A stretch of 64,000 bases of DNA from an uncultured bacterium. GTDB taxonomy: Bacteria; Zhuqueibacterota; QNDG01; JAGLOF01. The stretch lies in NCBI GenBank assembly GCA_964621645.1, contig CAZUMH010000003.1, positions 14,485 through 78,484 on the forward strand, written 5' to 3'. Of the stretch, positions 7,445 to 32,747 are shown piece by piece. The position numbers and the translations under genes were made by a program. Below the pieces are notes generated by a model. It made no database searches. It saw only the letters and a list, made by a program, of their open reading frames with translations, and was not told the origin of the DNA. Position 1 is the stretch's first letter, and each line of letters begins with the position of its first letter.

Positions 7445-7525
7445 CTCACATTTTGTAATCAAATATAAACAGAAAAGACTGCCTAAAGAGGGTAAATGTG
7501 GGGGATGGAAAAAGGAAAAAACGGA

Positions 7526-9206: not shown

Positions 9207-9234
9207 CTGGCTTCCTTTCCGTAAAATCTGGTAT

Positions 9235-9264: not shown

Positions 9265-9334
9265 AAGAAAGAGCTTGTACATGTTAGGATTATTTTTTAC
9301 ATTTATTATTATTTAAAATTCTATCCAGGAAAAC

Positions 9335-12160: not shown

Positions 12161-12314
12161 GACCACACCTCCATTTTTTATAACCAAATGAAAAATACTG
12201 CCATTATCATAAAACCGTTCAGTCTTTACCAGTCAGCAATGAGTTCATCGATGCTGTTCCTCTGGATATCAGGGCTATCCTTACCCTGACCATCAGCACA
12301 TAAGAGAAAGAACC

Positions 12315-18631: not shown

Positions 18632-19652
18632 CCTTTCGAATTTTTACCAACTGTTCTTCAATGTGCTGATTTAATCTGCTGGTGATCATCCTCCACGCTT
18701 CTTCCACTGCATTTTTAATGGCCCTGGGACCAGAGCTGCCGTGGGAGATAATACAGTTTCCCTTGATTCCAAGGAGGGGGGCTCCTCCATATTCCTGATA
18801 ATCAAAAAGTTTGAAAAACTTACGCAAGCTGGGCCGCATTAGGTACATGCCCAAAGTACCAGGCAAATTGCCCCTAATAGTGCGTCTCATGGTGCGCGAA
18901 ATCATCCGGGCTAGGCTTTCACCGAATTTCAGGATCACATTACCGGTAAATCCGTCGCAAATGATTACATCCGTCTCTCCCCGCAGAATATCGCGCCCCT
19001 CCACGTTTCCGGTGAAATTCAGGGAGCTTTTCTCAAGCAGGCGGTACGCCGCCCGTACCGTTTCCGTTCCCTTGGAGGATTCCTCACCTATATTAAGCAG
19101 ACCCACCCGGGGCGATTCAATCCCCATGATGTGGTTCATAAAAATTGATCCCATCATCCCGAATTGAAAAAGATGCTGAGGCCGGCAGTCGACATTAGAA
19201 CCGACGTCGAGCATGAGGCAGACACCCGATTCATGAGGCATGAAAGATCCGATGGCAGGCCTTTGCACGCCCTGAATCGTACGCAGCTGCACCAAAGCGG
19301 AAGCCATGACAGCACCTGTATTCCCGGCACTGACCACAGCATCAACCTCACCCGCTTTATGGAGTCGGATGGCGACCGCGATGGATGAATCAGGTTTTTC
19401 GCGCAGAGATAAAGCCGGAGCATCCTTCATGGAGACTTGCTGGGAAGCATGCACAATTGATATCGGCAAGTCCTTTACAAAATGATGATGGACCAGTTCC
19501 TCCTCAATCGCCCCTTCATCCCCGACCAAAACCACTTCATAACGGCCACCGGACTTCCTGGCAGCCTCGATAGCACCCGATACGATCGCTTCGGGTGCAT
19601 TATCGCCGCCCATGGCGTCAACCGCAATCTTGATTATAGATTGAGATTTCAT
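18612..19652 (-). CDS. plsX: Phosphate acyltransferase PlsX
   Basis: The N-terminus IAVDAMGGDNAP matches PlsX. The gene sits between rpmF and fabH. Confidence 0.9.
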   Translation of the reverse strand: MKSQSIIKIAVDAMGGDNAPEAIVSGAIEAARKSGGRYEVVLVGDEGAIEEELVHHHFVKDLPISIVHASQQVSMKDAPALSLREKPDSSIAVAIRLHKAGEVDAVVSAGNTGAVMASALVQLRTIQGVQRPAIGSFMPHESGVCLMLDVGSNVDCRPQHLFQFGMMGSIFMNHIMGIESPRVGLLNIGEESSKGTETVRAAYRLLEKSSLNFTGNVEGRDILRGETDVIICDGFTGNVILKFGESLARMISRTMRRTIRGNLPGTLGMYLMRPSLRKFFKLFDYQEYGGAPLLGIKGNCIISHGSSGPRAIKNAVEEAWRMITSRLNQHIEEQLVKIRKDGNSAK

Positions 19653-19835
19653 CTACCGTTCTCGGGGAACGGTAACCAGACGGCCACTATAATAACCGCA
19701 ATTGGGACAGGCCCGGTGCGGTAGTTTGGGTTGATGACAATGGGAACACTCCGTTACCGTGACCGCATCCACTTTCTGGTGGGTCCGCCGTTTGTCTCGG
19801 CGTGATTTTGATATCTTTCTTTTTGGTAAGGGCAC
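19653..19835 (-). CDS. rpmF: 50S ribosomal protein L32
   Basis: The 60-aa product reads PKRKISKSRRDKRRTH with a CxxC...CxxC zinc ribbon. It occupies the canonical position upstream of plsX. Confidence 0.9.
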   Translation of the reverse strand: MPLPKRKISKSRRDKRRTHQKVDAVTVTECSHCHQPKLPHRACPNCGYYSGRLVTVPRER

Positions 19836-19845
19836 AACAGACTCC

Positions 19846-20376
19846 TTATTCCTTAGTGTTGAATTTTATATTTTTCAGGCCGTCCCAGCGGGAATCATTA
19901 TCTTTACCGCTGCAGCGACAGCTGGTCTTATTTAAATTGACTCCACACCGCTGGCAAAGCCCCCTGCATTCCAGCCGGCAAAGAGGCGTGGAGGGCAAAG
20001 AAAGAACGATCGCATCCCAGACATCCTGGCTGATGTCCAATGCATCCGCTTCGGGCGAGATATACCGAATCTCGCTCTCTTCTCCACCTTCCTCACACTC
20101 CTCCCGATCGGTGGTGAAGTAAGTCTGTACCGTGCCCTCGATGCGGCCGGGGAATTCACTGCCACAGCGACCACAGAAAAAAATCACCTCTCCTCTGACT
20201 ACGGTATCGGCCAGAAAACCGTTGTCAAGAGCGGTAATATCACAAACCACTGAAAGCGGCTCGTGACAAACCGCAATCCCGGAAATCGGTTCATCCGGGC
20301 ATGTATATTTCAGATTAAATGATACCCTTTCCTTATTGATGGAGGAAAAGGGTATCTGCAATACTTCTTGTTTCAC
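19846..20376 (-). CDS. yceD: YceD/DUF177 family protein (23S rRNA accumulation protein)
   Basis: The 176-aa acidic product has a C-terminal CxxC..CxxC. It occupies the canonical position upstream of rpmF. Confidence 0.8.
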   Translation of the reverse strand: MKQEVLQIPFSSINKERVSFNLKYTCPDEPISGIAVCHEPLSVVCDITALDNGFLADTVVRGEVIFFCGRCGSEFPGRIEGTVQTYFTTDREECEEGGEESEIRYISPEADALDISQDVWDAIVLSLPSTPLCRLECRGLCQRCGVNLNKTSCRCSGKDNDSRWDGLKNIKFNTKE

Positions 20377-20540
20377 TTTACTACCATTCTCCGCGTCCTG
20401 AGATCCCGCCCCGGTTGTTCAAGATCCGGACGCGTTATCCGCAGCCGGGGCCCTCTTTGCCTTAAAACCGCCGGCAGCTGGTTTAATAGCTCCAAGAACG
20501 CTAAAGGTAGCCATTTCTGTAGAATAAATCAAGCAAAAAC

Positions 20541-21983
20541 CTAATCCTGCTCAGGTGGCTCCGGAGCCTTGGATATCTCCAAACGAAGCTGACAGCGCAG
20601 ACAACGGCTGGATTCATCTACTGCGGTATCCTCTTCAAAGCAAAAATCCACCTGGTGGAATCCCTTGAGCCGTTCTTTTACCGGCAGCGTCTTGCGAATG
20701 GCCCGTTTAAGGATGGCAAAGGACTCCTTGCTTCCGATACAGGGGTTGTCGTTCTCCCGAGGCACCAGTATCTGATCAATAATACCATCCCCGCCCAGGT
20801 AACGGTCGATGCTCGCGGCGGCCCTGCGGCCCGCTGAAATGGCCTTAATCACCGAGGCCGGGCCGCTTACCACGTCCCCACCGGCAAATACACCGTCCCG
20901 GGAAGTCATCATAGTGCCCTTGTCAACCGGGATACTGCCCCATTTGTCGGTCTCAACATCGAATTTTTCTGGAACGACATGATTCTGACCGATGGCTACG
21001 ACCAGTTTATCAGCGGGAATGACAAACTCACTCCCTTCAATGGGGATGGGTCTGCGGCGTCCGCTTTCATCAGGTGGTCCTAGTTCCATGCGGATACAGG
21101 TTATATTGAGGTGATCCTTGGCGGGATCTACTTTGACCGGATTCACCAGGAAATTGAAATGCACCCCTTCATTATAGGCTTCCTCAATCTCCTCCGGATC
21201 AGCAGGGGCCTGTTCCCTGGCCCGCCGATAGAGGATGTGGACCTCGTCGGCACCCACTCGGAGAGCGGTTCGGGCTACATCCATAGCTACGTTACCTCCG
21301 CCCACTACGCAAATCTTTCCAGTGAGCCCCATGTCATTGCCATGGCTGATTCCGTTGAGCACGAAGATACCGTCCATCACCCGGGGATCATCATCTCCGG
21401 GAATTTTCATTGAACTGCCCACCGGAGCTCCCAGGCCCAGGAAGACAGCGTTATAGCCGTTATTGAAAAGAGGATCGAGATCTTCCACCTTTTTTTCCGT
21501 GTGTATTTCCACACCCAAATTCTCAATCTCTTCTATCTCGCTGTTCAGCACCTCGATAGGTAGTCGGTAGCGGGGAATGCCCGAGAACATCATACCGCCA
21601 CAGTTTTTTAACGACTCATACACTGTGATCTGATGTCCCTTGAGGCGCAGGTACCAGGCCGCTGTCAACCCTGCGGGGCCGCCTCCGATAATGGCCACTT
21701 TCTTACCAGTGTCAGGAGCGACATTCAGTTTCTTACGCCAGCTTTTATCATCTTGTTCGGCCACAAAACGTTTTATATCCCTGATGGCTATAGAGCCACC
21801 CAGATCCTGACGGCGGCAGGCAGCTTCGCAGGGATGGTCACAGACCAATCCCAGCGAATGCGGAAAAGGAACCGTTTCCCGGACCACTTCCAGCGATTCC
21901 TGGTAACGTCCCTCCGCGGCCAGCTGTACATAGCGGGGGATGTCGATGTGAGCCGGACAGGTATAGCGACAGGGAACCAGCAC
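20541..21983 (-). CDS. GltD/NfnB/SudA-family NAD(P)H-dependent FAD oxidoreductase with partial N-terminal FeS motif
   Basis: The FAD site VAIIGGGPAGLTAAWYL and NAD(P)H site ICVVGGGNVAMDVAR are present. The N-terminus reads CRYTCPAHIDIP..GLVCDHPCEAAC. It has a GTG start in frame with, and 21 nt after, the upstream gene. Confidence 0.8.
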   Translation of the reverse strand: MLVPCRYTCPAHIDIPRYVQLAAEGRYQESLEVVRETVPFPHSLGLVCDHPCEAACRRQDLGGSIAIRDIKRFVAEQDDKSWRKKLNVAPDTGKKVAIIGGGPAGLTAAWYLRLKGHQITVYESLKNCGGMMFSGIPRYRLPIEVLNSEIEEIENLGVEIHTEKKVEDLDPLFNNGYNAVFLGLGAPVGSSMKIPGDDDPRVMDGIFVLNGISHGNDMGLTGKICVVGGGNVAMDVARTALRVGADEVHILYRRAREQAPADPEEIEEAYNEGVHFNFLVNPVKVDPAKDHLNITCIRMELGPPDESGRRRPIPIEGSEFVIPADKLVVAIGQNHVVPEKFDVETDKWGSIPVDKGTMMTSRDGVFAGGDVVSGPASVIKAISAGRRAAASIDRYLGGDGIIDQILVPRENDNPCIGSKESFAILKRAIRKTLPVKERLKGFHQVDFCFEEDTAVDESSRCLRCQLRLEISKAPEPPEQD

Positions 21984-22010
21984 TTCTTCGGGATCATCCG
22001 GATTTACGGG

Positions 22011-22628
22011 CTACTTCTCCTGCATCCCACCCGAGGGGCAGACCTCAACACAGGCGCCGCAGTACTTGCAGAGAGCATCGGCATAGGAATCTCCAAAGGG
22101 AGGCCCTATCTCGGACCGATAACCACGATTAATGAATCCCAGCGTGCCCACGCCCCTCACTTCCTGACAGACAGCGACACAACGACCGCAAAGGATACAT
22201 TTATTCATGTCCCGCACGAAGAGAGGATCATCAGCGAGAACCGGCAGATCCCTCGATTTGGGCGCGTAATTGGCCAGGATTTCATCAACGCCGCAGTATT
22301 CCACCACCTTCATGAGCTGGGTATCCTTGGGCTGATCCGGGGGTAGTTCACTCAGGGTCAGCCAGATGAGCCGGCGGCGCAGTGACTGCAGCTCTTCTGT
22401 TTTCGTCTGTACCACCATCCCCTCTTTGGCCTGAGTAGCACAGGCCACAGGCAGCCCGCGCATGCCTTCGATCTGAACGACGCAGAGCCTGCAGGTGGTC
22501 AGTGGCGGCAGATCTGGGTGGTAGCAGAGGTTAGGGATATAAATCCCATTGGCCAGGGCGGCCTCCAATACTGTCTGGCCTTCCTCTACGGTAATCTTCT
22601 TATTATCTATGGTGAGATGTATACTCAT
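22011..22628 (-). CDS. NuoG/HydA N-terminal-like FeS protein ([2Fe-2S] + His-type [4Fe-4S] + [4Fe-4S])
   Basis: The product reads MSIHLTIDNKKITV..CYHPDL..C..C (2Fe-2S), then CILCGRCVAVC and CKYCGACVEVCP. The ATG at 22628 has a GAGGAAG RBS. The track ORF is over-extended. Confidence 0.8.
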   Translation of the reverse strand: MSIHLTIDNKKITVEEGQTVLEAALANGIYIPNLCYHPDLPPLTTCRLCVVQIEGMRGLPVACATQAKEGMVVQTKTEELQSLRRRLIWLTLSELPPDQPKDTQLMKVVEYCGVDEILANYAPKSRDLPVLADDPLFVRDMNKCILCGRCVAVCQEVRGVGTLGFINRGYRSEIGPPFGDSYADALCKYCGACVEVCPSGGMQEK

Positions 22629-22638
22629 AGCTTCCTCT

Positions 22639-24438
22639 TCATTCAACAGTGATGGCATCGAATCGACAGGCTTCCTTACAGGCGCCGCAGCGGGTGCAGA
22701 TATCCTGATCAATGATGTGCGCCTCTTTCTTTTCTCCGGAAATCGCTTCAACCGGACAATTCCTGGCGCAAAGGGTACAACCGGTGCATTTTTCCGGATC
22801 TATTGTGAACGTGATAAGGGCCTTGCATACTCCTGCCGGGCAGCGTTTCTCATTGACATGAGCTTCATACTCATCCCGGAAATAGCGCAGGGTGGTCAGC
22901 ACTGGATTTGGTGCTGTGTTACCGAGTCCGCAAAGCGCCGTTTTCTTGATCAAATCGGCCAGGGATTCCAGGCCTTCGACATCACCCGGCTCACCGTTTC
23001 CGCTGGTAATCTTTTCCAGCAGTTCCTTCATACGGACCAATCCGACCCGGCAGGGTGTACACTTGCCGCAGGATTCATCCACCAGGAAGTTGATGAAGTA
23101 AAGAGCGATATCAACCATACAGGTCTCTTCATCCATGACGATGAGACCGCCAGAGCCCATGATGGCGCCTGCTTCGGTCAGTTTCTCATAATCCACCGGA
23201 AGATCAAGCAGGCTGGCCGGCACGCATCCCCCCGAGGGACCGCCTGACTGTACCGCTTTGAATTTTTTCCCGCCGGGAATACCGCCGCCGATTCCGTAGA
23301 TGATCTGACGCAGCGGGATGCCCATGGGAACCTCAACCAGACCGGAATTGTTGATTTTACCGACCAAAGAGAACACCTTGGTCCCCTTGCTCTTCTCCGT
23401 ACCCAGGGTAGCATACCAGGCGCCGCTCCGCTGAATGATAATCGGCACGTTGGCCCAGGTCTCCACGTTGTTAATATTGGTGGGCTTGCCCCAGAGTCCC
23501 TTTTCAGCCGGATAGGGAGGACGGGCGCTGGGGCGTCCCGGTCTACCTTCGATGCTGGCCATAAGCGCCGTTTCCTCACCGCAGACGAAGGCTCCACCAC
23601 CGCGGATGACTTCCACCTCGAAGCTGAATCCGGTGTCAAGGATATTCTCTCCCAGAAGTCCGTAATCAGTTGCCTGTTCAATGGCGTTCTTGATCCTTCT
23701 CACCGCCAGCGGATATTCATCCCGTACGTATATAAAACCCTTGCTGGCTCCTATCGCCTTGGCCCCGATGGTCATTCCCTCCAGAACGGCATGGGGATCA
23801 GCCTCGAGAATTGAACGATCCATATAGGCCCCGGGATCGCCCTCATCGGCGTTGCAGATGAGATATTTAACATCGCCCGGAGACTTCTTGCAGAGTGCCC
23901 ACTTAATTGCCGTGGGGAAACCTCCTCCTCCCCGTCCCCGCAGACCGGAGATCTTGATCTCTTCGATGATTTCCTCCGGGGACATACCGGTCAGGGCTTT
24001 AGCCAGCGCCTGATACCCGTCAAATGCGATATACTCATCAATCTTCTCCGGATCCATCCGGCCCCGGTTGCGAAGCACCACCAGCATCTGGTGCTTGAAG
24101 AAATCTATGTCCATCAGCTTGGGTATTTCTTTCTTGGCATCCTCCGGCACATACATGCATTTTTTATAGGGACGCCCTTTGAGAAAATGTTCCTCCACCA
24201 GGAGGGGAATGTCCTTCTCGCTGAGTTCCTGATAAAACACATCTTCAGGCTGTACAATAGCGATCGGTCCTCTCTCGCAAAATCCCTGACAGCCGGTGGC
24301 GATTATCTGCACTTCCTCTTCCAGTCCCCGCTTCTTGATCTCCTGCTCGAAGGCATCTTTGATAAGCATGGACCTGTTGGAAACGCAGCCCGTCCCGGCG
24401 CATACCAGCACATGAGTCCTGTATTTTCTTGAATCCAC
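22639..24438 (-). CDS. NuoF/HydB-like NADH-binding FMN FeS flavoprotein with N-terminal Trx-like [2Fe-2S] and C-terminal 2x[4Fe-4S] domains
   Basis: The motif GLRGRGGGGFPT, an FMN/NADH site and CGKCTPCR are present, plus two C-terminal ferredoxin motifs. Size is 599 aa. Confidence 0.9.
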   Translation of the reverse strand: MDSRKYRTHVLVCAGTGCVSNRSMLIKDAFEQEIKKRGLEEEVQIIATGCQGFCERGPIAIVQPEDVFYQELSEKDIPLLVEEHFLKGRPYKKCMYVPEDAKKEIPKLMDIDFFKHQMLVVLRNRGRMDPEKIDEYIAFDGYQALAKALTGMSPEEIIEEIKISGLRGRGGGGFPTAIKWALCKKSPGDVKYLICNADEGDPGAYMDRSILEADPHAVLEGMTIGAKAIGASKGFIYVRDEYPLAVRRIKNAIEQATDYGLLGENILDTGFSFEVEVIRGGGAFVCGEETALMASIEGRPGRPSARPPYPAEKGLWGKPTNINNVETWANVPIIIQRSGAWYATLGTEKSKGTKVFSLVGKINNSGLVEVPMGIPLRQIIYGIGGGIPGGKKFKAVQSGGPSGGCVPASLLDLPVDYEKLTEAGAIMGSGGLIVMDEETCMVDIALYFINFLVDESCGKCTPCRVGLVRMKELLEKITSGNGEPGDVEGLESLADLIKKTALCGLGNTAPNPVLTTLRYFRDEYEAHVNEKRCPAGVCKALITFTIDPEKCTGCTLCARNCPVEAISGEKKEAHIIDQDICTRCGACKEACRFDAITVE

Positions 24439-24446
24439 TGTAACTC

Positions 24447-24893
24447 CTATTGATATTTTTCCAGAACCTTGCCAATATCCTTCTGGGTCAATTTACCATG
24501 AAAATTCTCGTCGATAACCATGACCGGCGCCAATCCGCAGCATCCTACGCATCTCACTTCTTCAAGGGTAAAGCGTTCATCCGCAGTGGTTTCTCCGTTC
24601 CTGATTCCCAGATCACGCTCGAGCTTCTCCACCAGTTTGGCAGCGCCGCGTACGTGACAGGCGGTGCCGGTGCACACATTAATGGTGTGCCGGCCCCTGG
24701 GTGTCAGGCTGAAGGCCTTATAAAAAGTAGCCAGGCTGTAGAGGCGGGAGAGAGGGACACTCACTTCGGCGGCCACGATCTTCAGCGCCTCCTTGGGCAG
24801 ATATCCTTTTTCCTTCTGAATATCCTGAAGCATGGCAATTAAGCTGCGCTCACGTTTGTTATATCTTTCCACTATTTGTTTTACTGACTTCAA
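24447..24893 (-). CDS. NuoE/HydC-like [2Fe-2S] thioredoxin-fold protein
   Basis: The NuoE-type cluster motifs C..CTGTACHVRGA..VRCVGCCGLAP are present. Size is 148 aa. Confidence 0.9.
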   Translation of the reverse strand: MKSVKQIVERYNKRERSLIAMLQDIQKEKGYLPKEALKIVAAEVSVPLSRLYSLATFYKAFSLTPRGRHTINVCTGTACHVRGAAKLVEKLERDLGIRNGETTADERFTLEEVRCVGCCGLAPVMVIDENFHGKLTQKDIGKVLEKYQ

Positions 24894-24914
24894 TAAAAAC
24901 CTCCCTTTTTATAA

Positions 24915-25457
24915 TCAATCTATTTGAATCTTGCGCAAATCGTTCAGTTCCCGCCGCACAAATTTTATCACGGCCGGAGTACTGCGAACTGCTTCTCCAT
25001 ACTCTTCTTCTATACGGGATGAGTGCCAGCTGAATTCTTCTCTTTCCCCATGATAGTTTATCTGAAATTCCGTCTGGGGATGGGCGGTCAGCAGCACGAT
25101 CATCATCTCGACAAGATCGCCCAAAGGCTGGCGGTCGATATGATTGCTGTGAAAAACCGCCTCAACACTGGTTCCCTGGTCCGGGATTGAGTGTATGGTC
25201 AAATCACCGCCTGTTTTCCTGGCCGCCTCCTTCATCATGGAAAGGCCCAGTCCCACTCTCTTTTTATCCTTTGTGGTTATAAAGGGATCGAGGACGGCCC
25301 GTTGCATATCTTCATCCATGCCTCGGCCATTGTCCAGAATCTGAATCGCAAGAGTAGAGTCTTCCTTTTCCTCACTCAGATCGATTACCACAAGATCGGC
25401 TCCGGCTCTCACCGAATTTTCCACGATATCGATGATATGGAGCGATATTTCAATCAT
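24915..25457 (-). CDS. GHKL/histidine-kinase-like ATPase domain protein (no sensor or DHp domain)
   Basis: The HATPase_c-like motif ILDNGRGMDED...GLGLSMM is present. Proteins of this type recur in HydABC-type operons. Confidence 0.65.
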   Translation of the reverse strand: MIEISLHIIDIVENSVRAGADLVVIDLSEEKEDSTLAIQILDNGRGMDEDMQRAVLDPFITTKDKKRVGLGLSMMKEAARKTGGDLTIHSIPDQGTSVEAVFHSNHIDRQPLGDLVEMMIVLLTAHPQTEFQINYHGEREEFSWHSSRIEEEYGEAVRSTPAVIKFVRRELNDLRKIQID

Positions 25458-26209
25458 GCCGTCTTCATCCGTGAAACCACTTTTCTGCCTTCCTGGTTTT
25501 TCAAGGCAAGCCGCATCTCAGCGGTGGTCATCTCGGCAACCGTCCATTCGGTCCAGACCCGGCCAATATCATCGAGTCGGTGGGCATCCGACGACCGGAT
25601 CAGGGGAAAGTCTGCGGCGCCAGGGAGCTTCTTTACCTCTTCCAGATCTCCCCGGGGAGAAACTTCAAGCGCGTCAAGAGCCAATCCTTCCGGAATAAAT
25701 CCCAGCTGGCTGATAAGGCTGTAACTGCCCCGGTCGACGTGTGAGGCCACTGCCAGACCGTTCAGAGCGTGAATATGACCGACCACTTCTTCCACCGTCA
25801 GTGTCGTCCCTCCGATGAGAAGCCGGTATTCAAAATACTCCACCTCGTCGTTCTCGTTTGCCACTACCTGCATGCCAAAGAGCTCATCATCATTGCGTCC
25901 GGGCAAAAGATGATTATATACGGTATCCTGCAGAGTCAGGACCTCTGCGGCCCTGTCAAACAGTGCCAGGATATGGACTTCCTCGGCGGTGCTCACTTCC
26001 ATGCCTGCCAGAATCCTGGGCCCCTCATCGCCCGCGGCGGCCGATACTCCCGCCACGTTCTTGGCGCTGTTGTGATCACTGACAGCGACGGTATCAAGCT
26101 TTTCCCGTCGGCAGCGCTCCACAATTTTCATTGGGGTCATCTCCAACTCGCCGCAGGGGGAAAGGCAGGTATGCAGATGCAGATCGGCCTTGAATACGCA
26201 AAGGCTCAT
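25454..26209 (-). CDS. PHP-domain metal-dependent phosphoesterase
   Basis: PHP motifs are present (DLHLHTCLSPCG; VAVSDHN; SDAH). Confidence 0.7.
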   Translation of the reverse strand: MSLCVFKADLHLHTCLSPCGELEMTPMKIVERCRREKLDTVAVSDHNSAKNVAGVSAAAGDEGPRILAGMEVSTAEEVHILALFDRAAEVLTLQDTVYNHLLPGRNDDELFGMQVVANENDEVEYFEYRLLIGGTTLTVEEVVGHIHALNGLAVASHVDRGSYSLISQLGFIPEGLALDALEVSPRGDLEEVKKLPGAADFPLIRSSDAHRLDDIGRVWTEWTVAEMTTAEMRLALKNQEGRKVVSRMKTA

Positions 26210-26553
26210 CCTTTCCGGCCGACCCCCAGATTGTAGAGACGTCCGGCTAATTCATAGGCGGAAAGATCCGAGGCCAGAAGAGGCACACCTTCCTTTTCCG
26301 CTTTCTCCCTGGTCTGATCCGCGGGCTGCTTACCGCCGATGATAACGATCCCGGCCAGTTCCTTGAGAGTCGCTACGGCCACGGTGTTTTCATGAACCTG
26401 CAGGGTAAGCCAAAGATCTCCTTTCCTGGAATTGGCGATCACGTCACTAAGCATGTCGCTTACATACCCGTTTTCCACTTCGGCATCAAGTTTGCCGGCA
26501 GCTGCTTCTACCGATAATTTCAGCTTTTCAACAATGTCCGCAAGTTTCATCAT
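26206..26553 (-). CDS. DRTGG domain protein
   Basis: The 115-aa product belongs to the small DRTGG family and is a paralog of 28271-28603. Confidence 0.55.
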   Translation of the reverse strand: MMKLADIVEKLKLSVEAAAGKLDAEVENGYVSDMLSDVIANSRKGDLWLTLQVHENTVAVATLKELAGIVIIGGKQPADQTREKAEKEGVPLLASDLSAYELAGRLYNLGVGRKG

Positions 26554-26559
26554 ATTTCC

Positions 26560-27819
26560 CTATTTATTCTGGGTCACGAACACGCAGTCTTCCAGTCGGG
26601 CCTCGCCCCTGACAATATCTCTGGCCAGGGTTTTGCAATCCGGGGCACCGCAGGCGCCGCACTCCTTGCCTCCCAGCTGGGGGATGAGTTCTTCGATTCG
26701 CTGCCTCTTTTTCAAGGCCTTAACCGGATCGGGGTCCAAAGGAGGCAGAGGATGGCGCTCCATCCCTTTCTCCAGAAAGAAGTAGTTCTCTTGATAGAGA
26801 CGCCGGATCACCTTGCGGCTCACCCGGCTGCGTTCCCCGAACATCTTCACCAGGTTTTCGGACCGCTTCTTGGCAATATGACGGTTTTCCACTACCTGGG
26901 GTCCACCGATGCAGCCGTCCGGGCAGACAAGGCACTCCAGATACTGGATATCCTTCAGTTTCCCCGCCTCCACATCATCCAGAATCTGAATGACATCGGA
27001 GACTCCCGAAACGGCCAGACAGTTATCCAGGTTGATCCCGTTAACCTCTCCTCCGGATTTACCCCAGCCGAGTCCAACGCCGCTTGACTGCTGCAGGATG
27101 ATATCTTCGTCCATGTCTTCAATGACCTCAAGAAGATCGGCGTAAATATCACTGATCGCTATGGCACCGTCAAGGGAAGATTTGGAAAGCCCGATGGGAT
27201 TATTGATCGACACCATCTTGGCCGAACAGGAGGTGATATGGATGATACCGATCTCCTCTTCTTTGAAGCCTTTCTCTTGCGCCAGCTTCTTGCGAAGATT
27301 CCTGGCCAGCACCTCTCTTGGAACATCGATAGGCATCATATTCTCCGCCAGCTCGGGATAGAGGAAGGAGACCAGCCGTACCACCGCCGGACAGACCGTG
27401 GAAATACGCGGCCGGGGACCTTTATCCTCTTTTAAAAAGATCTCGTAAGCGGCATTTACCTTCTCGCACACCCAGGCCAGATCAACAACGTAATCAAAGC
27501 CTATTTTGCGAAGAGCCAGCAATACCTGATTGGGCATTACCTCCCAGCCAAACTGGGTGTATAACACCGGCGAGGGGAGGGCCACTGTGTATTTAAACCG
27601 TTTCAAATCGGAAAATGAAGTCGTCTGGGGCACGACCGCTTCGTGGGGGCAGACCCGATAGCATTCCCCGCAATCAACGCAGCGCTCACTCAAAATAACC
27701 GCTTTCCCAGTGCGTACCCTAATGGCCTTGGTGGGACAGGCCTTCATACAGAGAACACACCCCACGCACTTATCTTCATCTATCGTAAGGGAGTGCAGTT
27801 TTTTAACCGGTTTATCCAT
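26560..27819 (-). CDS. [FeFe]-hydrogenase-like protein (HydS/HfsB-like, putative sensory/regulatory), N-terminal 2x[4Fe-4S], C-terminal extra Cys4
   Basis: H-cluster motif equivalents are P1 STVCP (TSCCP lacking the proton-relay Cys), P2 TSCSAKM (MPCxxK) and P3 ECLVCPDGCIGGPQ (ExMACxxGCxxGG). The C-terminus carries CGACGAPDC...C. Confidence 0.75.
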   Translation of the reverse strand: MDKPVKKLHSLTIDEDKCVGCVLCMKACPTKAIRVRTGKAVILSERCVDCGECYRVCPHEAVVPQTTSFSDLKRFKYTVALPSPVLYTQFGWEVMPNQVLLALRKIGFDYVVDLAWVCEKVNAAYEIFLKEDKGPRPRISTVCPAVVRLVSFLYPELAENMMPIDVPREVLARNLRKKLAQEKGFKEEEIGIIHITSCSAKMVSINNPIGLSKSSLDGAIAISDIYADLLEVIEDMDEDIILQQSSGVGLGWGKSGGEVNGINLDNCLAVSGVSDVIQILDDVEAGKLKDIQYLECLVCPDGCIGGPQVVENRHIAKKRSENLVKMFGERSRVSRKVIRRLYQENYFFLEKGMERHPLPPLDPDPVKALKKRQRIEELIPQLGGKECGACGAPDCKTLARDIVRGEARLEDCVFVTQNK

Positions 27820-28261
27820 TATTTACCGCTCTCTTGATATGAATTTCCAATCTGGTCCCTTTTCCGGCAGCGGTGTCTATCTTCAGCTCGTCGGAATTTC
27901 TCTTGATATTGGGCAGCCCCATCCCAGCGCCGAATCCCATCTCCCGCATTTCGTCGGTAGCGGTTGAGTATCCTTCCTGCATAGCTTTAGTCACATCCGG
28001 AATACCAGGACCTTTGTCCTCTACGATGAGGATAACATCCTCGGGATTGACTCGAAGCGTCACTTTACCCCCGCCACCATACATGACCACATTCATCTCC
28101 GCTTCGTAGGAAGCCACTGCCACCCGCCGGATAACCGAAGAGTCGAATCCCACCTCTTTAAGGATATTCTTGATCTGTACGGAAGCTTCTCCGGCACTGG
28201 CAAAGTCGTTTCCTTTTATCTGGAATGACTTCTGGAAAAGAACCTGTTCACTCATGCTCAT
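27812..28261 (-). CDS. GHKL/anti-sigma-factor-like ATPase domain protein
   Basis: The HATPase_c-like motif IVEDKGPGIPD...GFGAGMGL is present. Size is 149 aa. Confidence 0.6.
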   Translation of the reverse strand: MSMSEQVLFQKSFQIKGNDFASAGEASVQIKNILKEVGFDSSVIRRVAVASYEAEMNVVMYGGGGKVTLRVNPEDVILIVEDKGPGIPDVTKAMQEGYSTATDEMREMGFGAGMGLPNIKRNSDELKIDTAAGKGTRLEIHIKRAVNNG

Positions 28262-28270
28262 CTTTCCATT

Positions 28271-28603
28271 TCATTTCAGATGGGAGTAGAGAATCCCGCA
28301 GACTTCAAACATGCTCAGATCCGTTGCCAAAAGAGGAAAACCGCGATTTTCCGCAAGTTTAATGGTCTCCTCGCTGGGCACTTTTCCCCGCACATAGACA
28401 ATGGCACCCAGGTCGACTACTTCTGCGGTACGCACCGTCTGAGCGTTAACCAGTCCGGTAACGAGAATATCTCCGCGTCTGCTGGAGCTGAGAACATCGC
28501 TCATCAGATCGGATGCCTTGATATAGGAAACCTCCATATCGAAGTCTACCGAGTCTGTCAGGGCCCGGGCCTGGATTAGCTCCTTGATAGTTGCCAGTTT
28601 CAC
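28271..28603 (-). CDS. DRTGG domain protein
   Basis: The 110-aa product is a paralog of 26206-26553. Confidence 0.55.
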   Translation of the reverse strand: MKLATIKELIQARALTDSVDFDMEVSYIKASDLMSDVLSSSRRGDILVTGLVNAQTVRTAEVVDLGAIVYVRGKVPSEETIKLAENRGFPLLATDLSMFEVCGILYSHLK

Positions 28604-29148
28604 GTTTTTCCATCCTCGCTTCTGGATGATTCCTTGATAGGTGACTTTTTACCCTGTTCGCGGGAACTCACTATCTCTTCCCGAATGATCCGGCGGGCGA
28701 CAGCGGGAATCGCCGCCGTGACCTCCGGTGTGCAGGAGTCCCCGAAAGTGGTGACGTCCTTCACGCCGATACCGTAGATGACTATCTCTTCCGGCAGATC
28801 CATCTTCAGTCTCTGTCCCAACGCCAGTGCCTCGTTCAAGGGAACCTGATGACGTGACATGGCCGATCCTCCGGTCAAATCTTCGGCCTTCAATCTGACC
28901 AGAGAACCGGGCCCGGCCGTCCCCAAAGCATCAACAATGACGACCTTGCGATACCCGCGCATCAGATCCAACAGTTCAAGTCCACCCAGGCTGGCTTCGA
29001 TGAAGTCGACCCCGGCACCGCTGTACAATTTTTCAATCTCCCGGCTGACATAGATACCCACCCCGTCATCGCTGAGAATAGTGTTGCCCAAACCGAGGAT
29101 CAGCGTGGGGGATTCCCGTTTGGGGAGAGTATGCCCGGAGCGGCTCAC
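28600..29148 (-). CDS. Hydrogenase maturation protease family protein (HyaD/HybD/FrhD-like)
   Basis: The N-terminus LILGLGNTILSDDGVGIYV matches the HybD-like fold. It also has DALG and a C-terminal His candidate. Confidence 0.65.
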   Translation of the reverse strand: MSRSGHTLPKRESPTLILGLGNTILSDDGVGIYVSREIEKLYSGAGVDFIEASLGGLELLDLMRGYRKVVIVDALGTAGPGSLVRLKAEDLTGGSAMSRHQVPLNEALALGQRLKMDLPEEIVIYGIGVKDVTTFGDSCTPEVTAAIPAVARRIIREEIVSSREQGKKSPIKESSRSEDGKT

Positions 29149-29708
29149 GTCTCCTCACGGTTGTAGGCGGCCATTCCTTCTTTGTAAAGATCGCCGCCGA
29201 AAGCGTCGTTTACCACTACTGCGGGGAAATCTTCCACCTCGAGCCGACGGATCGCTTCCGGGCCCAGATCTTCAAAGGCTACGACCTCCGCCTTTTTCAC
29301 CGCCTGAGCCATAAGGGCGGCGGCTCCGCCGATTGCTCCAAAATAGACCGCCCCGAATTTTTTCTGTGCTTCGATGACCTCCGGAGCCCGGTTTCCCTTG
29401 CCGATCATTCCTTTCAGGCCCACTTCAATAAGACGGGGGGCGAAAGGATCCATCCGATAGCTGGTTGTGGGACCGACCGAACCTATGGGCCGACCCGGTT
29501 TGGCCGGCGCCGGTCCAGCATAATAGATTATCTGTCCCTTAAAATCCACCGGCAGGGTCTCTCCCCGGTCCAGGGCTTCGATAAGCCGTTTATGGGCTGA
29601 ATCCCGGGCTGTATAGATTACTCCGCTGATTACCACCGCATCACCGATACGGAGCTGTTTCACGGCTTCATCCGTCAGGGGAGTGGTTATTCTTTTTACA
29701 TCAGACAT
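29145..29708 (-). CDS. Fumarate hydratase class I, beta (C-terminal) subunit
   Basis: The Fe-S hydro-lyase beta-type sequence reads GKGNRAPEVIEAQKKFGAVYF. The start is probably MSDVKR at 29708. Confidence 0.8.
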   Translation of the reverse strand: MSDVKRITTPLTDEAVKQLRIGDAVVISGVIYTARDSAHKRLIEALDRGETLPVDFKGQIIYYAGPAPAKPGRPIGSVGPTTSYRMDPFAPRLIEVGLKGMIGKGNRAPEVIEAQKKFGAVYFGAIGGAAALMAQAVKKAEVVAFEDLGPEAIRRLEVEDFPAVVVNDAFGGDLYKEGMAAYNREET

Positions 29709-29752
29709 GGCCTTTTCCTCATATACGGGTGTGCATTGAATTGACTTGTTTA

Positions 29753-30595
29753 TTACAGGATGACTTCCTTGTGGCGCGCCACATGGCACTGCATATTCAC
29801 CGCAACAGGGAAACTGGCGATATGACAGGGATGAACCTCAATATGCACGGCCAATGCAGTGCATCTGCCGCCGAACCCCTGGGGACCGATACCCAGCTTA
29901 TTTATCTTCTCTAGAAGTTCTGCCTCCAGGTCAGCGTAGAACGGATCGGGATGGCGCGATCCAACCGGGCGCAGCAGGGCTCTTTTGGCGATCTGGGCGC
30001 ACTTGTCGAATGTTCCCCCGATGCCGACACCCACAATAACCGGAGGGCAGGGATTGGCACCGGATCTTCGCACCCGGTCCACCACGAATTCCTTGACCCC
30101 CTCGACCCCGGCGGCTGGAGCCAGCATCTTCACTTCGCTCATATTCTCACTGCCGCCTCCTTTGGGAGCAATGGTAATCTTGATCTTATCGCCCGGCACG
30201 ATATCGCAATACACAATGGCGGGAGTGTTATCTCCGGTGTTTTTCCGTTCAATGGGATCACTGACCACCGACTTGCGCAGATATCCTTCTGCGTATCCCT
30301 GCCGCACTCCTTCGTTGATCGCCTCACCCAGGTCACCACCGATGATATGCAGGTCCTGCCCGATCTCGACGAAGAAGACGGCGTATCCGGTGTCTTGACA
30401 GAGGGGGACCGCATCGTTTTTCCCGATTTCGATGTTCTGGAGAATTTTGCCCATCACCTCTTTCCCTGTGGGCGATTCTTCCCGTTCCATACAGGATTTA
30501 ATTCTGTCGGTGACATCATCCCCCAAATAAAAATTAGCGTCCAAACAAAGCTTCTTGACCGCTTCCGTTATTCGAGCAACGTCCAGTTCTCTCAT
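29753..30595 (-). CDS. Fumarate hydratase class I, alpha (N-terminal) subunit
   Basis: The 280-aa Fe-S hydro-lyase alpha-type product has Cys ligands (CQDTG..; ..CPP; ..C). It lies adjacent to the beta subunit. Confidence 0.8.
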   Translation of the reverse strand: MRELDVARITEAVKKLCLDANFYLGDDVTDRIKSCMEREESPTGKEVMGKILQNIEIGKNDAVPLCQDTGYAVFFVEIGQDLHIIGGDLGEAINEGVRQGYAEGYLRKSVVSDPIERKNTGDNTPAIVYCDIVPGDKIKITIAPKGGGSENMSEVKMLAPAAGVEGVKEFVVDRVRRSGANPCPPVIVGVGIGGTFDKCAQIAKRALLRPVGSRHPDPFYADLEAELLEKINKLGIGPQGFGGRCTALAVHIEVHPCHIASFPVAVNMQCHVARHKEVIL

Positions 30596-30687
30596 GAATT
30601 GGCTCCTTTAGATTGTCTGCCGTCTTTCCCGCTGCCGGGAAAAACGTATCTGAAAATTCCAGCGATATAGTAAACGGCGGGGATCGG

Positions 30688-31350
30688 TCAGCACCATCCC
30701 ACCACCTTGTTTACCAGCTTCTCGATACCCGGGGCAATATCGGAGATAGCGGGACCCAGCATATACGCAGGCGTGGACACGATTTTCATCTCTTCATCGA
30801 CCACAATCTGGTCAACTGAAGCCGTTTGGTGTCTGGCTCCGAAGTATTCAATGTCCGCGGCCGTTCCCGTATCCGTTCCTATGGTAAGCAACGGTTTTCT
30901 GGCCTCTTCCTTGAAGGCGACTGCCGCCAATACCGGCGCGATGCAGATGAAGCCCAATGGCTTGCCCGCAGCCCGCATTCCGAGAATCAAGTTCTTCACT
31001 TCCGGACGCAGCGTACAATCCCGCCCTTTAAAAGCGTAATTCGAAAGATTCTTGGCCGCTCCGAATCCTCCCGGGAGTATCAGTCCATCCAGCTCTCCCA
31101 CCTTTACATCCGTCACCGGATGCACACCGCCCCTGGCAATACGGGCCGACTCAACCAGAATATTCCTCTCTTCCCCGGAGGGAGAGTCATTCTGATGATT
31201 TATCACTTCTGACTGGGCCGCGTCCGGGGCTATAAAGTGTATCGTAACTCCAGCCTGATCCAGGAACAGAAGGGTCAACGTGGCTTCATGTATTTCGCTG
31301 CCGTCATTCACGCCGCAGCCGGAAAGCAGCACTCCGATTGTCTTCGCCAT
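30688..31350 (-). CDS. elbB: DJ-1/PfpI-family protein ElbB (isoprenoid biosynthesis glyoxalase-like)
   Basis: It is collinear with E. coli ElbB (IGVLLSGCGVNDGSEIHEATLTL..; LPGGFGAAKNLSNYA; GKPLGFICIAP; TPAYML). The start is at a Met with a GGAGGTG RBS. Confidence 0.85.
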   Translation of the reverse strand: MAKTIGVLLSGCGVNDGSEIHEATLTLLFLDQAGVTIHFIAPDAAQSEVINHQNDSPSGEERNILVESARIARGGVHPVTDVKVGELDGLILPGGFGAAKNLSNYAFKGRDCTLRPEVKNLILGMRAAGKPLGFICIAPVLAAVAFKEEARKPLLTIGTDTGTAADIEYFGARHQTASVDQIVVDEEMKIVSTPAYMLGPAISDIAPGIEKLVNKVVGWC

Positions 31351-31470
31351 GGGCCACCTCCATTCTCTTCTTATAGGATTTAAATTGTACAAAAATTAAT
31401 GACTTCATGCAAGCGGAAAAAATATTTCATGCCTCCTTTCAGCACCTGTTTGTCTGTCCCTACGGGAATG

Positions 31471-31497
31471 AAAAAACCCCGCCATTAGGCGGGGTTT
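31471..31497 (-). terminator. Rho-independent terminator downstream of icd
   Basis: The stem aaccccgcc (31475-83) pairs with ggcggggtt (31489-97) around an attag loop. On the minus strand it is followed by a U-run (plus-strand aaaaaa, 31471-76). Confidence 0.75.
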
Positions 31498-31544
31498 CCA
31501 GGTGTTAAAAACAGCAGTATCTCAGCAATATCGGGCATCCTGAA

Positions 31545-32747
31545 TCAGGACTGTTTCGCGTATGATTCCCAGCGCTGCTGCAAGCGGGCATCCTGCATGG
31601 TTTCCATAACATAGTTGCTGAATTCGGCGGCGGTTGCTCCCGTATCTCTGCCGGTTATCCGCAGTTTCTTTTCAAACACGCTGCAGATATCCAGCGCCTT
31701 TTCCAAAAGATCGGCTTTATCCTGATAGCCGATGTGCCCCAGAAGCATCACCGAAGCCCGCAGCATACTGCAGGGATCTGCGTAATTCCCCCGCCCCTCC
31801 TTCATCATACGCGGCGCCGATCCGTGGATGGCCTCAAACATCGCATAGCGTTTGCCGATGTTGGCGCTGCCGGCAGTGCCCACACCACCCTGAAATTCAG
31901 CCGCTTCATCGGTCAGGATATCACCGTATAGATTCGGCAGGACCATGACCCGGAACTGTGTTCTGCGTTTGGGATCCACCAGTTTGGCCGTCATAATATC
32001 AATATACCAGCCCTCCCAGTGAATGTGGGGATATTCCTTGCCTATTTCAGCAGCGACATCGAGGAAGAGTCCGTCCGTGGTCTTGATAACGTTGGCTTTC
32101 GTGACCACAGTCACCGAATCGATACCGTTCTTATCCGCGTAATCGAATGCCATCCGGATAATCCGTTCGGCTCCCTGTCTGGTGATGACCTTGAAATCCA
32201 TAGCCAGATCAGCTCCAACCATGACTCCCTGGCTGCCCAGTACATAAGCCCCTTCGGTATTCTCACGGAAAAACATCCAGTTGATACCCTGACTGGGAAC
32301 CTTTACCGGCCGGACATTGGCAAACAGGTCAAGATAACGGCGCATGGCAACATTTGCGCTTTCGATATTGGGCCACTCGCTCCCCTTTTCAGGCGTGGTC
32401 GTGGGTGCCTTGAGAATGACGTGGCAGGCCTTTAATGCTTCCAGCACATCATCGGGGATGGCCTTCTTATGAGCGGCCCGGTTCTCGATGGTTAATCCCT
32501 CGATGGTCCGAAAGACAACTTTTCCGGAAGCCGTCTCCTTTTCCAGCAGGAATTCCAGTACCCGCCGGGCTTCCTGGGAAATAATAGGACCGATACCGTC
32601 ACCGCCGCACACTCCGATGATAATGGGTGACAGACTGGCGTAATCGATCCAGTCAGCGGCCTGTTTCATCTTTTCAATACGTCCCAACTGTTGGGTAAGG
32701 ATGGTTTCGAAATGTTGCTTGGCCTTCTCTATCTCGGGATTACTCAT
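31545..32747 (-). CDS. icd: Isocitrate dehydrogenase (isocitrate/isopropylmalate dehydrogenase family)
   Basis: The family motifs NLYGDILTDEAA, GSANIG and FEAIHGSAP are present. Size is 400 aa. It lies in a TCA-gene context next to aconitase. Confidence 0.75.
   Translation of the reverse strand: MSNPEIEKAKQHFETILTQQLGRIEKMKQAADWIDYASLSPIIIGVCGGDGIGPIISQEARRVLEFLLEKETASGKVVFRTIEGLTIENRAAHKKAIPDDVLEALKACHVILKAPTTTPEKGSEWPNIESANVAMRRYLDLFANVRPVKVPSQGINWMFFRENTEGAYVLGSQGVMVGADLAMDFKVITRQGAERIIRMAFDYADKNGIDSVTVVTKANVIKTTDGLFLDVAAEIGKEYPHIHWEGWYIDIMTAKLVDPKRRTQFRVMVLPNLYGDILTDEAAEFQGGVGTAGSANIGKRYAMFEAIHGSAPRMMKEGRGNYADPCSMLRASVMLLGHIGYQDKADLLEKALDICSVFEKKLRITGRDTGATAAEFSNYVMETMQDARLQQRWESYAKQS

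Follow-up and report, generated by a model that had tools for sequence, protein, structure and literature searches.

Which enzyme is served by a regulatory gene cassette of hydrogenase type when no catalytic hydrogenase stands beside it? The question is raised by a row of eleven open reading frames (ORFs) on the minus strand, running from 29148 down to 20541, in a 64,000-nucleotide (nt) stretch of DNA from an uncultured bacterium of the Zhuqueibacterota (assembly GCA_964621645.1, contig CAZUMH010000003.1, positions 14,485 to 78,484). This whole stretch is called the window below. The first-pass annotation, made from the sequence letters alone, described the row as the regulatory cassette of bifurcating hydrogenases, attached to an Stn/Nfn-like transhydrogenase instead of a hydrogenase. 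The reading proposed here, whose chance of being right is put at somewhat better than even, is that the row encodes an Stn/NfnABC-type BfuABC enzyme and an H2-sensing six-gene module, which would gate the BfuBC core of that enzyme post-translationally. The components of the row are as follows.

28600-29148, minus strand: HycI-like protein, similar to hydrogenase maturation proteases of the HycI/HybD family (PF01750, E 2e-16; TIGR00072, 115 bits, above cutoff)
28271-28603, minus strand: DRTGG-a, a small protein of DRTGG/HPrK-N-like fold (PF07085, 19.2 bits, below the cutoff of 25.2)
27812-28261, minus strand: GHKL-a, a SpoIIAB-like GHKL ATPase (HATPase_c and HATPase_c_2)
26560-27819, minus strand: HydS-like protein, a group-D (M2e)-like [FeFe]-hydrogenase homologue and putative H2 sensor (two Fer4, Fe_hyd_lg_C and C-terminal PF04060)
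26206-26553, minus strand: DRTGG-b, a small DRTGG-fold protein, enzyme-proximal (PF07085, 24.5 bits; cutoff 25.2)
25454-26209, minus strand: PHP-family metal-dependent phosphoesterase (PF02811 and PF13263 (PHP_C))
24915-25457, minus strand: GHKL-b, a histidine-kinase-like ATPase without HisKA (HATPase_c, E 6e-16)
24447-24893, minus strand: BfuC, a NuoE/HydC-like [2Fe-2S] subunit, corresponding to StnA in the Stn nomenclature (PF01257, E 5.8e-54; NuoE and HoxE families)
22639-24438, minus strand: BfuB, a NuoF/HydB-like flavin mononucleotide (FMN)/NADH subunit (Complex1_51K, NADH_4Fe-4S, 2Fe-2S_thioredx and two Fer4)
22011-22628, minus strand: N-terminal part of BfuA, NuoG-N/HydA-N-like, with one [2Fe-2S] and two [4Fe-4S] clusters (Fer2_4 and Fer4_Nqo3)
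22011-22013, minus strand: in-frame TAG splitting BfuA, at a linker residue that is variable in relatives
20541-21983, minus strand: C-terminal part of BfuA, a GltD/NfnL-like flavin adenine dinucleotide (FAD)/NADPH domain with two [4Fe-4S] clusters (Fer4_20 and Pyr_redox_2)

The ORF check returned all eleven genes at the coordinates and on the strand given beforehand. The spacing had been described as 10 nt or less throughout; it ranges in fact from an overlap of 8 nt to a gap of 27 nt, and two gaps (21 and 27 nt) exceed 10 nt. The domain content was verified by Pfam profile search for the HydS-like protein, the two GHKL ATPases, PHP, NuoE, NuoF, NuoG-N and GltD. The two DRTGG assignments fall under the cutoff and are backed by homologues and by fold. 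In NCBIfam, neither BfuA nor any protein of the cassette receives a name at equivalog level.

The NuoE-like and NuoF-like genes, which lie 8 nt apart, were recognized as a pair of the bifurcating HydBC/Bfu type, as the annotation of a NuoE/NuoF-like module had anticipated. In the NuoF-like protein, Pfam places 2Fe-2S_thioredx at residues 7-82 and the two C-terminal Fer4 domains at residues 545-597. Its best PDB chains are 7t2r_B (1e-257), 7q4v_B, 9bov_B, 9n5u_B and 8oh5_B, all of them bifurcating HydB, NfnB or StnB proteins; the best-matched proteins are the NiFe-HydB of Acetomicrobium mobile, the HydB of Acetobacterium woodii, the NfnB of Caldicellulosiruptor saccharolyticus and Thermococcus sibiricus, and the StnB of Sporomusa ovata.

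The third component was identified through its GltD-like part, which is far nearer to the NADPH domain of NfnA/StnC (9bov_A, 8e-117; 8oh5_C, 1e-108) than to the large subunit of NfnSL (2e-74) or to GltD. Its alignment to 9bov_A is gapless, and C9, C48, C52 and K71 of the 480-amino-acid (aa) ORF fall on C108, C147, C151 and K170. In StnC/NfnA, the FAD-proximal [4Fe-4S] cluster is ligated by three Cys and one Lys, which is strictly conserved and essential, while NfnB has Glu at the Lys-ligand position, paired with a bifurcating FAD (PMC10482914, PMC11829005). K71 (K286 in the numbering of the fused protein), all Cys ligands and the GxGxxG, GGGN and YRR motifs are invariant in 22 BfuA homologues. 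The N-terminal part matches HydA1, NiFe-HydA and residues 4-97 and 602-674 of StnC among PDB structures, and the Cys ligands of its one [2Fe-2S] and two ferredoxin-type [4Fe-4S] clusters are invariant in the family alignment. The domain order of the BfuA family is thus [2Fe-2S], two [4Fe-4S] and GltD, in about 696 aa and without a molybdopterin-like domain. In the characterised StnC/NfnA proteins, the formate dehydrogenase (Fdh)-like part bears a dead-end branch of clusters and is regarded as an evolutionary remnant (PMC11829005).

Stand-alone NuoE-NuoF-BfuA operons (BfuA of about 696 aa) without the cassette were found in three unrelated genomes, on a Planctomycetota chromosome (locus L005) and in two others, and the enzyme therefore appears to be complete and self-sufficient without the cassette. 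From these features we infer that the enzyme of the locus is a minimal, rearranged Nfn-Bfu/Stn-type NADPH:NAD+/ferredoxin transhydrogenase of the BfuABC (HydBC-core) family. The earlier proposal of a putative NADH/NADPH/ferredoxin transhydrogenase therefore stands as far as the Lys ligand, the NADPH motifs and the likeness to StnC/NfnA are concerned, and is modified in its domain order, which differs from that of StnC. If the enzyme works like StnABC/NfnABC, the FAD of the GltD-like domain of BfuA would take up electrons from NADPH. These would travel on by way of the Lys-ligated cluster and the iron-sulfur (FeS) chain to the FMN site of BfuB and be bifurcated there to NAD+ and ferredoxin; alternatively, the enzyme would run in reverse and make NADPH.

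BfuA is represented in the window by two ORFs of 206 and 480 aa, which share a reading frame and are parted by the single TAG and nine codons. In a search with the joined ORFs, 119 of the 120 best matches were single proteins of 647-727 aa, nearly all of about 690-710 aa, with identity up to 78%. They cover 98-100% of the joined ORFs (91% for the 647-aa protein), and the sole match of 480 aa was the protein of the window itself. By this comparison with homologues, the NuoG-N ORF and the GltD-like ORF are the halves of one conserved gene of about 696 aa. HydA had been thought to be replaced by two separate proteins; this was abandoned in favor of one NuoG-N::GltD fusion gene cut by a TAG.

Six relatives have a sense codon where the window has the TAG. 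The residue it encodes varies (T, A, K or N) and belongs to a linker that joins the last ferredoxin-type motif to the first Cys of the GltD domain and does not change in length. Recoding of the TAG, either as pyrrolysine or through an altered code, was considered and is unlikely, because TAG is an ordinary stop codon here (it terminates 17 of the 49 genes of the window), no tRNA gene was found in the 64-kb window, and the site lies in a variable linker. A transfer-messenger RNA (tmRNA) gene alone is present, at 3686-4038 on the minus strand, with the tag peptide GNDYSYALAA.

The TAG may instead be a recent nonsense mutation which inactivates BfuA and leaves its NADPH domain unmade or untethered, so that the locus is a decaying relic. 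All relatives have a sense codon at the position, TAG is in ordinary use as a stop, and the GTG that opens the 480-aa ORF, which lacks a Shine-Dalgarno sequence, is merely the ancestral Val codon; these observations fit decay. On the other hand, both halves retain every residue that is invariant in the 22-member family alignment, and no second lesion was recognized. The break falls exactly in the variable linker of unchanged length, and the flanking NuoG-N and GltD domains are separate polypeptides in some other lineages. A stop codon followed by C is a weak termination context; the TAG is followed by C, with the restart codon 27 nt further downstream. The TAG could also stem from an error in the assembly or from variation within the population. 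Taken together, decay of the locus is considered unlikely. The break may be recent, or tolerated, or bypassed through read-through or re-initiation, or may be a variant of the assembly or of the population. The split is perhaps tolerated because the two domains are separate polypeptides elsewhere. The split enzyme may assemble from two pieces, depend on read-through, or be recently inactivated.

The putative sensor is a protein of 419 aa with an Fe_hyd_lg_C domain (E 3e-26) and two N-terminal [4Fe-4S] motifs. Its alignment to DdH shows the L1, L2 and L3 motifs, and the sequences STVCP, TSCSAK and ECLVCPDGC are present. The H-cluster ligands C143, C198, C299 and C303, the cyanide (CN)-binding K201 and also P144 are invariant in 15 HydS homologues. 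The proton-relay Cys (C299 of CpI) is replaced by Val, and the two Met residues framing the di-iron site, Met353 and Met497, are replaced by Thr and Leu; TamHydS has Ser and Leu at these two positions (PMC8163306). The C-terminal motif is Cx2Cx4Cx16C, whose residues C387, C390, C395 and C412 are invariant in homologues, and there is no PAS domain. Judged against the published description of TamHydS (PMC8163306), these sequence features match group D (M2e), and the HydS-like sensor of the first-pass annotation is upheld in this more specific form. A further mark of group D, an operon shared with a group-A hydrogenase, is lacking: no second H-domain was found in the 64-kb window.

Among the remaining cassette proteins, the two DRTGG proteins score just under the Pfam cutoff. 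DRTGG-a is 40% identical to DRTGG-b, and PF07085 is annotated on many DRTGG homologues with 54-68% identity. Modest support came from the AlphaFold2 model of DRTGG-b (115 aa; pLDDT 80.2, the predicted local distance difference test score), for which Foldseek returned the N-domain of HPrK (1ko7; E 2e-4, TMq 0.60), 3l2b (E 0.018) and 2ioj; a sequence search of the PDB with DRTGG-b gave no match. DRTGG-a is proposed as an adaptor on the sensor side. The best NCBIfam match of GHKL-a is the anti-sigma F factor, below cutoff, and its best PDB matches are SpoIIAB proteins, also weak; a function as a serine protein kinase is possible from this similarity. GHKL-b is encoded just upstream of the NuoE, HydD-like and NuoF genes in all loci that are long enough. 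The nearest solved structures to PHP are the nucleotide phosphoesterases 3e0f and 2yb1, both weak matches. No DNA-binding domain was recognized in the cassette, as had been noted from the sequence, and no STAS, PP2C, sigma factor or DNA-binding protein was found in the 64-kb window or, within the 80 related loci described below, in the part that is conserved.

The HycI-like gene is kept at the same position, upstream of the cassette, in relatives. Genes of the HycI family recur beside NuoE-NuoF-NuoGN::GltD modules with no NiFe hydrogenase nearby, in the window and in two further loci: in L091 (5934-6434), the gene lies divergently upstream of a cassette-free operon, and in L013 (8658-9551), it is fused in frame to DRTGG. 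The HycI-like gene may be left over from a NiFe-Bfu ancestor, or may represent a domain that was recruited.

To what kind of enzyme does the cassette belong in other genomes? A pattern scan with the alignment of sensor homologues, using one genome per species, matched 488 genomes. The 80 loci whose sensors are closest to that of the window (47-76% identity) were annotated against the window proteins. They derive from metagenome-assembled genomes including those of WOR-3, Aminicenantes, KSB1, TA06, Stahlbacteria, Edwardsbacteria, Gemmatimonadota, Acidobacteria and Desulfuromonadales. NuoF is present in 53 of the 80 loci, and the other 27 are mostly short contigs. A HydA-like gene combining NuoG-N with an H-domain was found in none of the 53 NuoF-bearing loci. 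The third modules found with the NuoE/NuoF core are the following.

14 loci: NuoF::GltD fusion, small NuoG-N protein and a protein with the PF01645 Glu_synthase domain
11 loci: NuoF, NuoG-N and a protein with the PF01645 Glu_synthase domain
9 loci: NuoF, an 864-aa NuoG/molybdopterin protein, NfnA and NfnB
4 loci: NuoF and NuoG-N::GltD, the type of the window
1 locus (L083, counted among the four of the window type): a true StnC-like protein of about 1270 aa in the StnC domain order

The cassette had been taken to belong to bifurcating hydrogenases, with hydA swapped out in the window. This has to be revised: its nearest relatives, in 80 genomes, never stand beside a HydA-like gene, but beside GltD, GltB, Nfn and Mo-pterin modules, and a single transplantation of a hydrogenase cassette is not supported. 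The distribution suggests that the cassette travels with the NuoE/NuoF core whatever the third module is, and that it is not specific to hydrogenases. The NuoF of the window is 66-79% identical to other cassette-linked NuoF proteins, and only 52-55% identical to those of cassette-free operons with the same type of BfuA. These identities fit a unit of cassette plus core that swaps its third modules. In the close relatives L011 (15302-20076) and L012 (15166-20012), the site of NuoGN::GltD holds the 864-aa NuoG/molybdopterin protein, NfnA and NfnB, which indicates that a single lineage has replaced its third module and kept both the cassette and the flanks.

Several variations of the cassette loci were observed. 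Many lineages add a small thioredoxin-like [2Fe-2S] protein resembling the N-terminal [2Fe-2S]-type domain of NuoF; we take it to resemble HydD of the tetrameric Thermoanaerobacter hydrogenases. Three loci, L051 (6141-8647), L052 (1988-4585) and L062 (2754-5217), carry a second, tandem mini-cassette upstream of NuoE. It encodes a DRTGG protein, a DRTGG::GHKL fusion and a paralogue of HydS that shares only 36-37% identity with the HydS of the window. L012, with the same flanking synteny as the window, has extra genes between HycI and the cassette (2257-9185): a response regulator, a group-C1-like sensor kinase built as H-domain::HisKA::HATPase, a hybrid histidine kinase with PAS and a 798-aa NfnA::NfnB fusion. 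By their domains, these extra genes would amount to a second, classical two-component H2-sensing system beside the first.

The PF01645 loci bear on the role of the GltD-like domain. In WOR-3, Stahlbacteria, Aminicenantes and Acidobacteria (L007, 17578-19161, and 24 further loci), a PF01645 protein of about 530 aa follows NuoF, which is often fused to GltD, and the small NuoG-N protein; the WOR-3 loci have glutamate dehydrogenase and a sigma-54 two-component pair upstream. Such loci may encode an H2-gated NADH/ferredoxin-dependent glutamate synthase. In the window, the GltD-like domain might likewise serve as the input or output module of another reductase (a GltB-like protein, a sulfide or polysulfide reductase, or a reductase linked to the tricarboxylic acid (TCA) cycle) rather than as the NADPH port of a transhydrogenase. 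Many enzymes are served by GltD-like proteins, and the PF01645 gene follows cassette-linked NuoF(::GltD) and NuoG-N in other lineages as well. Nevertheless, the Lys ligand and the YRR motif for NADPH mark the domain of the window as StnC-type. A glutamate synthase large subunit as the partner had been named in advance as grounds for giving up the transhydrogenase; tblastn with a GltB-like query found no gltB in the 64-kb window, although the rest of the genome may hold one, and no homologue lies beside the three stand-alone operons. Service to another reductase is regarded as highly improbable.

Fusions and partial cassettes show how the module is built. Judged from stop-to-stop ORFs, DRTGG is fused in frame to GHKL-a in three genomes (L051, L052 and L062), DRTGG-a to HydS in L043, HydS to DRTGG-b in L067 and HycI to DRTGG in L013. 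These gene fusions argue for physical contacts among the sensor, DRTGG and GHKL proteins. In Desulfomonile tiedjei (L089, CP003360, 5800-17500) and in one further genome (L090), part of the cassette is included in a complex-I-type operon: DRTGG-b, PHP, GHKL-b, NuoE, the small [2Fe-2S] protein, NuoF and NuoG are encoded between nuoD and nuoH, and DRTGG-a and a CBS::GHKL-a fusion just upstream of nuoA, with no HydS. From DRTGG-b to NuoF, the proteins of these two loci are 38-62% identical to their window counterparts. From these arrangements, the module appears to consist of a sensor half (DRTGG-a, GHKL-a and an exchangeable HydS or CBS input) and an enzyme-proximal half (DRTGG-b, PHP and GHKL-b).

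With these loci at hand, it can be asked whether the HydS-like protein is a catalytic subunit instead of a sensor. It would then dock on the NuoG-N-like domain by way of the two [4Fe-4S] clusters at its N terminus, and the complex would be an H2-dependent NAD(P)+/ferredoxin oxidoreductase, an unusual hydrogenase with an NADPH port. The invariant H-cluster ligands and K201 are compatible with catalysis, TamHydS of group D turns over H2 (PMC8163306), and group-C3 enzymes were treated as the "T subunit" of BfuABC in a published analysis (PMC11406978). In many loci, the sensor gene has NuoE upstream of it and NuoF downstream, in the manner of a structural gene. On the other side, the proton-relay Cys and the Met residues beside it are replaced, a trait of slow sensory enzymes; the same BfuABC enzyme occurs without HydS in three genomes; and a CBS domain takes the place of HydS in D. 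tiedjei. Furthermore, the neighbours of HydS are in every case GHKL, DRTGG and PHP genes, a set typical of signalling. A catalytic role of the HydS-like protein is therefore very unlikely.

If the HydS-like protein is a sensor, the most likely mechanism is that binding of H2 would alter the interactions or the phosphorylation state of the DRTGG and GHKL proteins, and the PHP phosphoesterase would reset the state of their complex. The output would act directly on the BfuBC (NuoE/NuoF) core and not on DNA. Three points favor such a post-translational output: the cassette has no DNA-binding protein, sigma factor, STAS or PP2C conserved alongside it, it sits inside structural operons, and the cassette-linked NuoF proteins are more alike than the type of the third module predicts.

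The same proteins could form a partner switch with transcriptional output. GHKL-a would be an anti-sigma factor or serine kinase, the DRTGG proteins its antagonists and PHP the phosphatase, and the operon would be controlled by their target, a sigma factor or regulator whose gene lies elsewhere. GHKL-a does match HATPase_c_2, with SpoIIAB anti-sigma F as its best match in both families and structures, an AraC-type regulator is present in the gene neighbourhood of TamHydS (PMC8163306), and L012 has response-regulator and histidine-kinase genes beside its cassette. The SpoIIAB matches are, however, weak and under the curated cutoffs, neither the window nor the conserved part of the 80 loci holds a candidate target of this kind or a STAS or PP2C partner, and the cassette is inserted within enzyme operons, even between nuoD and nuoE. 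The likeness among cassette-linked NuoF proteins, which exceeds what their third modules predict, is also not in line with a transcriptional target. A transcriptional output is judged to be rather unlikely.

Several observations weigh against the proposal of a BfuABC enzyme gated by H2 through its core. The domain order of BfuA is unlike that of every characterised Stn/Nfn-Bfu enzyme, and the His-ligated cluster of HydA/NuoG is missing from its N-terminal part. The TAG, with no Shine-Dalgarno sequence seen before the GTG of the 480-aa ORF, may leave the enzyme non-functional in this genome. No hydEFG maturase genes were found in the 64-kb window, and the H-cluster of HydS is therefore putative. 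In a study of 2026, the C-terminal cluster of a group-D enzyme was unresponsive to H2 (PMC13104023). Since GHKL-a resembles anti-sigma factors, transcriptional output through an unlinked sigma factor is conceivable. The closest relatives of PHP are nucleotide phosphoesterases and not protein phosphatases, so a nucleotide-based signal is possible. Finally, the census is confined to the 80 nearest sensors.

A wider form of the proposal is that DRTGG, GHKL and PHP proteins constitute a general post-translational switch of the bifurcating BfuBC core with exchangeable inputs, HydS for H2 and the CBS pair for adenine nucleotides; this is possible, although rather doubtful. If it is true, group-D enzymes gate bifurcation in enzymes that never touch H2, such as transhydrogenases, glutamate-synthase-like complexes and complex-I-type Nuo-Bfu, and the long-sought interaction partners of group-D enzymes are the adjacent DRTGG and SpoIIAB-like proteins. 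Group-D [FeFe] hydrogenases are labelled "putatively sensory", and the identification of their partners was described as a critical gap in the 2026 study (PMC13104023); the locus and its relatives offer testable candidates. The regulated unit appears to be the NuoE/NuoF core, which would widen H2 sensing to the NADPH/NADH/ferredoxin balance and possibly to glutamate synthesis and respiration, in many uncultured phyla of anaerobes and, among cultured organisms, at least in D. tiedjei. As for the enzyme itself, a minimal, reordered and widespread version of Stn/NfnABC, with roughly the clusters of the presumed productive electron path, would be a useful simplified model of Bfu bifurcation.

The row continues upstream into two further genes.

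29145-30595, minus strand: fumarase class I beta and alpha (fumB and fumA; PF05683 and PF05681)

The stop codon of fumB overlaps the GTG start of the HycI-like gene by 4 nt, and fumA lies just upstream of fumB; both are contiguous with the row and probably belong to the same transcription unit. The eleven-gene operon described at first is a real gene row, in which this upstream continuation and the identity of the HycI-like gene had been overlooked. The order fumA-fumB-HycI-DRTGG-GHKL-HydS-DRTGG-PHP-GHKL-NuoE-NuoF-BfuA-yceD-plsX-fab is kept on related metagenomic contigs with 68-78% protein identity, and the arrangement is therefore more than chance. A promoter and terminator consensus scan of 19600-32000 gave fewer matches than shuffled controls and was uninformative on the operon boundaries.

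The window as a whole is a TCA-cycle island. It encodes citrate synthase, aconitase, isocitrate dehydrogenase, fumarase and succinyl-CoA synthetase, along with two sets of 2-oxoacid:ferredoxin oxidoreductase (Kor-like pairs) and a flavoprotein, similar to fumarate reductase, together with its FeS subunit. The TCA/redox genes at 31545-63138 include two Hdr-like clusters (41945-49568 and 57935-60834) and a gene for a 610-aa HEAT-repeat protein (61306-63138). A transhydrogenase is plausible in this setting because these enzymes use NADP(H), NAD(H) and ferredoxin. The proposed gating would tie the NADPH/NADH/ferredoxin balance of the nearby isocitrate dehydrogenase, 2-oxoglutarate:ferredoxin oxidoreductases, fumarase and fumarate reductase to ambient H2, and such tuning would suit a syntrophic or H2-exposed anaerobe. 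A catalytic hydA just beyond the row had been named beforehand as the discovery that would overturn the idea of a transhydrogenase; neither a catalytic hydA nor a NiFe hydrogenase is present in the 64-kb window. A second PHP-domain protein is encoded at 7526-8338, overlapping a Rossmann-like/DUF2520 gene (8331-9266), and in the Planctomycetota locus L005, a DUF2520 gene (12158-13057) directly follows the stand-alone NuoE-NuoF-BfuA operon.

In the literature, no paper on the DRTGG/GHKL/PHP cassette or on its non-hydrogenase Bfu partners was found, within an incomplete coverage that leaves room for an earlier description, and the words kinase, phosphatase and sensory are absent from the survey of the Bfu family. 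Like the SpoIIAB/SpoIIAA/SpoIIE system, the cassette combines a small HATPase_c_2-type GHKL ATPase with antagonist-like small proteins and a phosphoesterase, and has no DNA-binding domain. The cassette differs in having a DRTGG/HPrK-N-like fold instead of STAS, PHP instead of PP2C and no linked sigma factor. Among the components of SpoIIAB-type partner switching, the GHKL protein alone fits, and weakly.

The HydABC(D) operons with a group-D HydS, such as that of Thermoanaerobacter mathranii with TamHydS, have a sensor of the same composition: two [4Fe-4S] clusters, an H-domain without the relay Cys, the Cx2Cx4Cx16C motif and no PAS domain. They differ from the present loci, where catalytic HydA is absent (in the window and in the 53 NuoF loci) and the third module is NADPH-linked. 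This comparison was made by description, from PMC8163306 and the general make-up of the Thermoanaerobacter hyd operons. In the NiFe-HydABCSL of A. mobile (7T2R), HydB is the best solved match to the NuoF of the window (1e-257), HydA matches the NuoG-N part well, and a maturation protease gene of the NiFe type stands in the window row; NiFe large and small subunit genes are not found in the window. The Nuo-Bfu of the D. tiedjei nuo operon has the same order of DRTGG-b, PHP, GHKL-b, NuoE, small [2Fe-2S] protein and NuoF, while it is membrane-bound, has the CBS pair fused to GHKL-a in place of HydS, and presumably uses quinone as the third substrate.

NfnAB (NfnSL) has a homologous FAD/NADPH domain with two [4Fe-4S] clusters, and its overall reaction is presumed to be the same. 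The locus has no NfnA/S subunit, and the proximal cluster has Lys here versus Glu in NfnAB. With Lys at this position, the FAD is expected to be non-bifurcating, and bifurcation would take place at the FMN site of NuoF instead (PMC10482914).

The closest systems are StnABC of S. ovata and NfnABC of C. saccharolyticus and T. sibiricus (8OH5, 9BOV, 9N5U), which have the same NuoE/NuoF-like bifurcating core with a third subunit. Like BfuA, StnC/NfnA combines NuoG-type FeS clusters with a GltD/NfnL-like FAD/NADPH domain, a Lys-ligated proximal cluster and the NADPH motif. In StnC/NfnA (963-1178 aa), GltD is inserted after the [2Fe-2S] domain and is followed by a NuoG/Fdh-like domain with the dead-end cluster branch, whereas in the BfuA of the window GltD comes last, in a protein of about 696 aa which has no Fdh-like remnant and no His-ligated cluster and is split by the TAG. 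None of the characterised Stn/NfnABC enzymes has been described with a regulatory cassette. The enzyme of the locus thus agrees with Stn/NfnABC in its predicted cofactors but not in its domain order, and would represent a new architectural variant of the Bfu/Nfn family.

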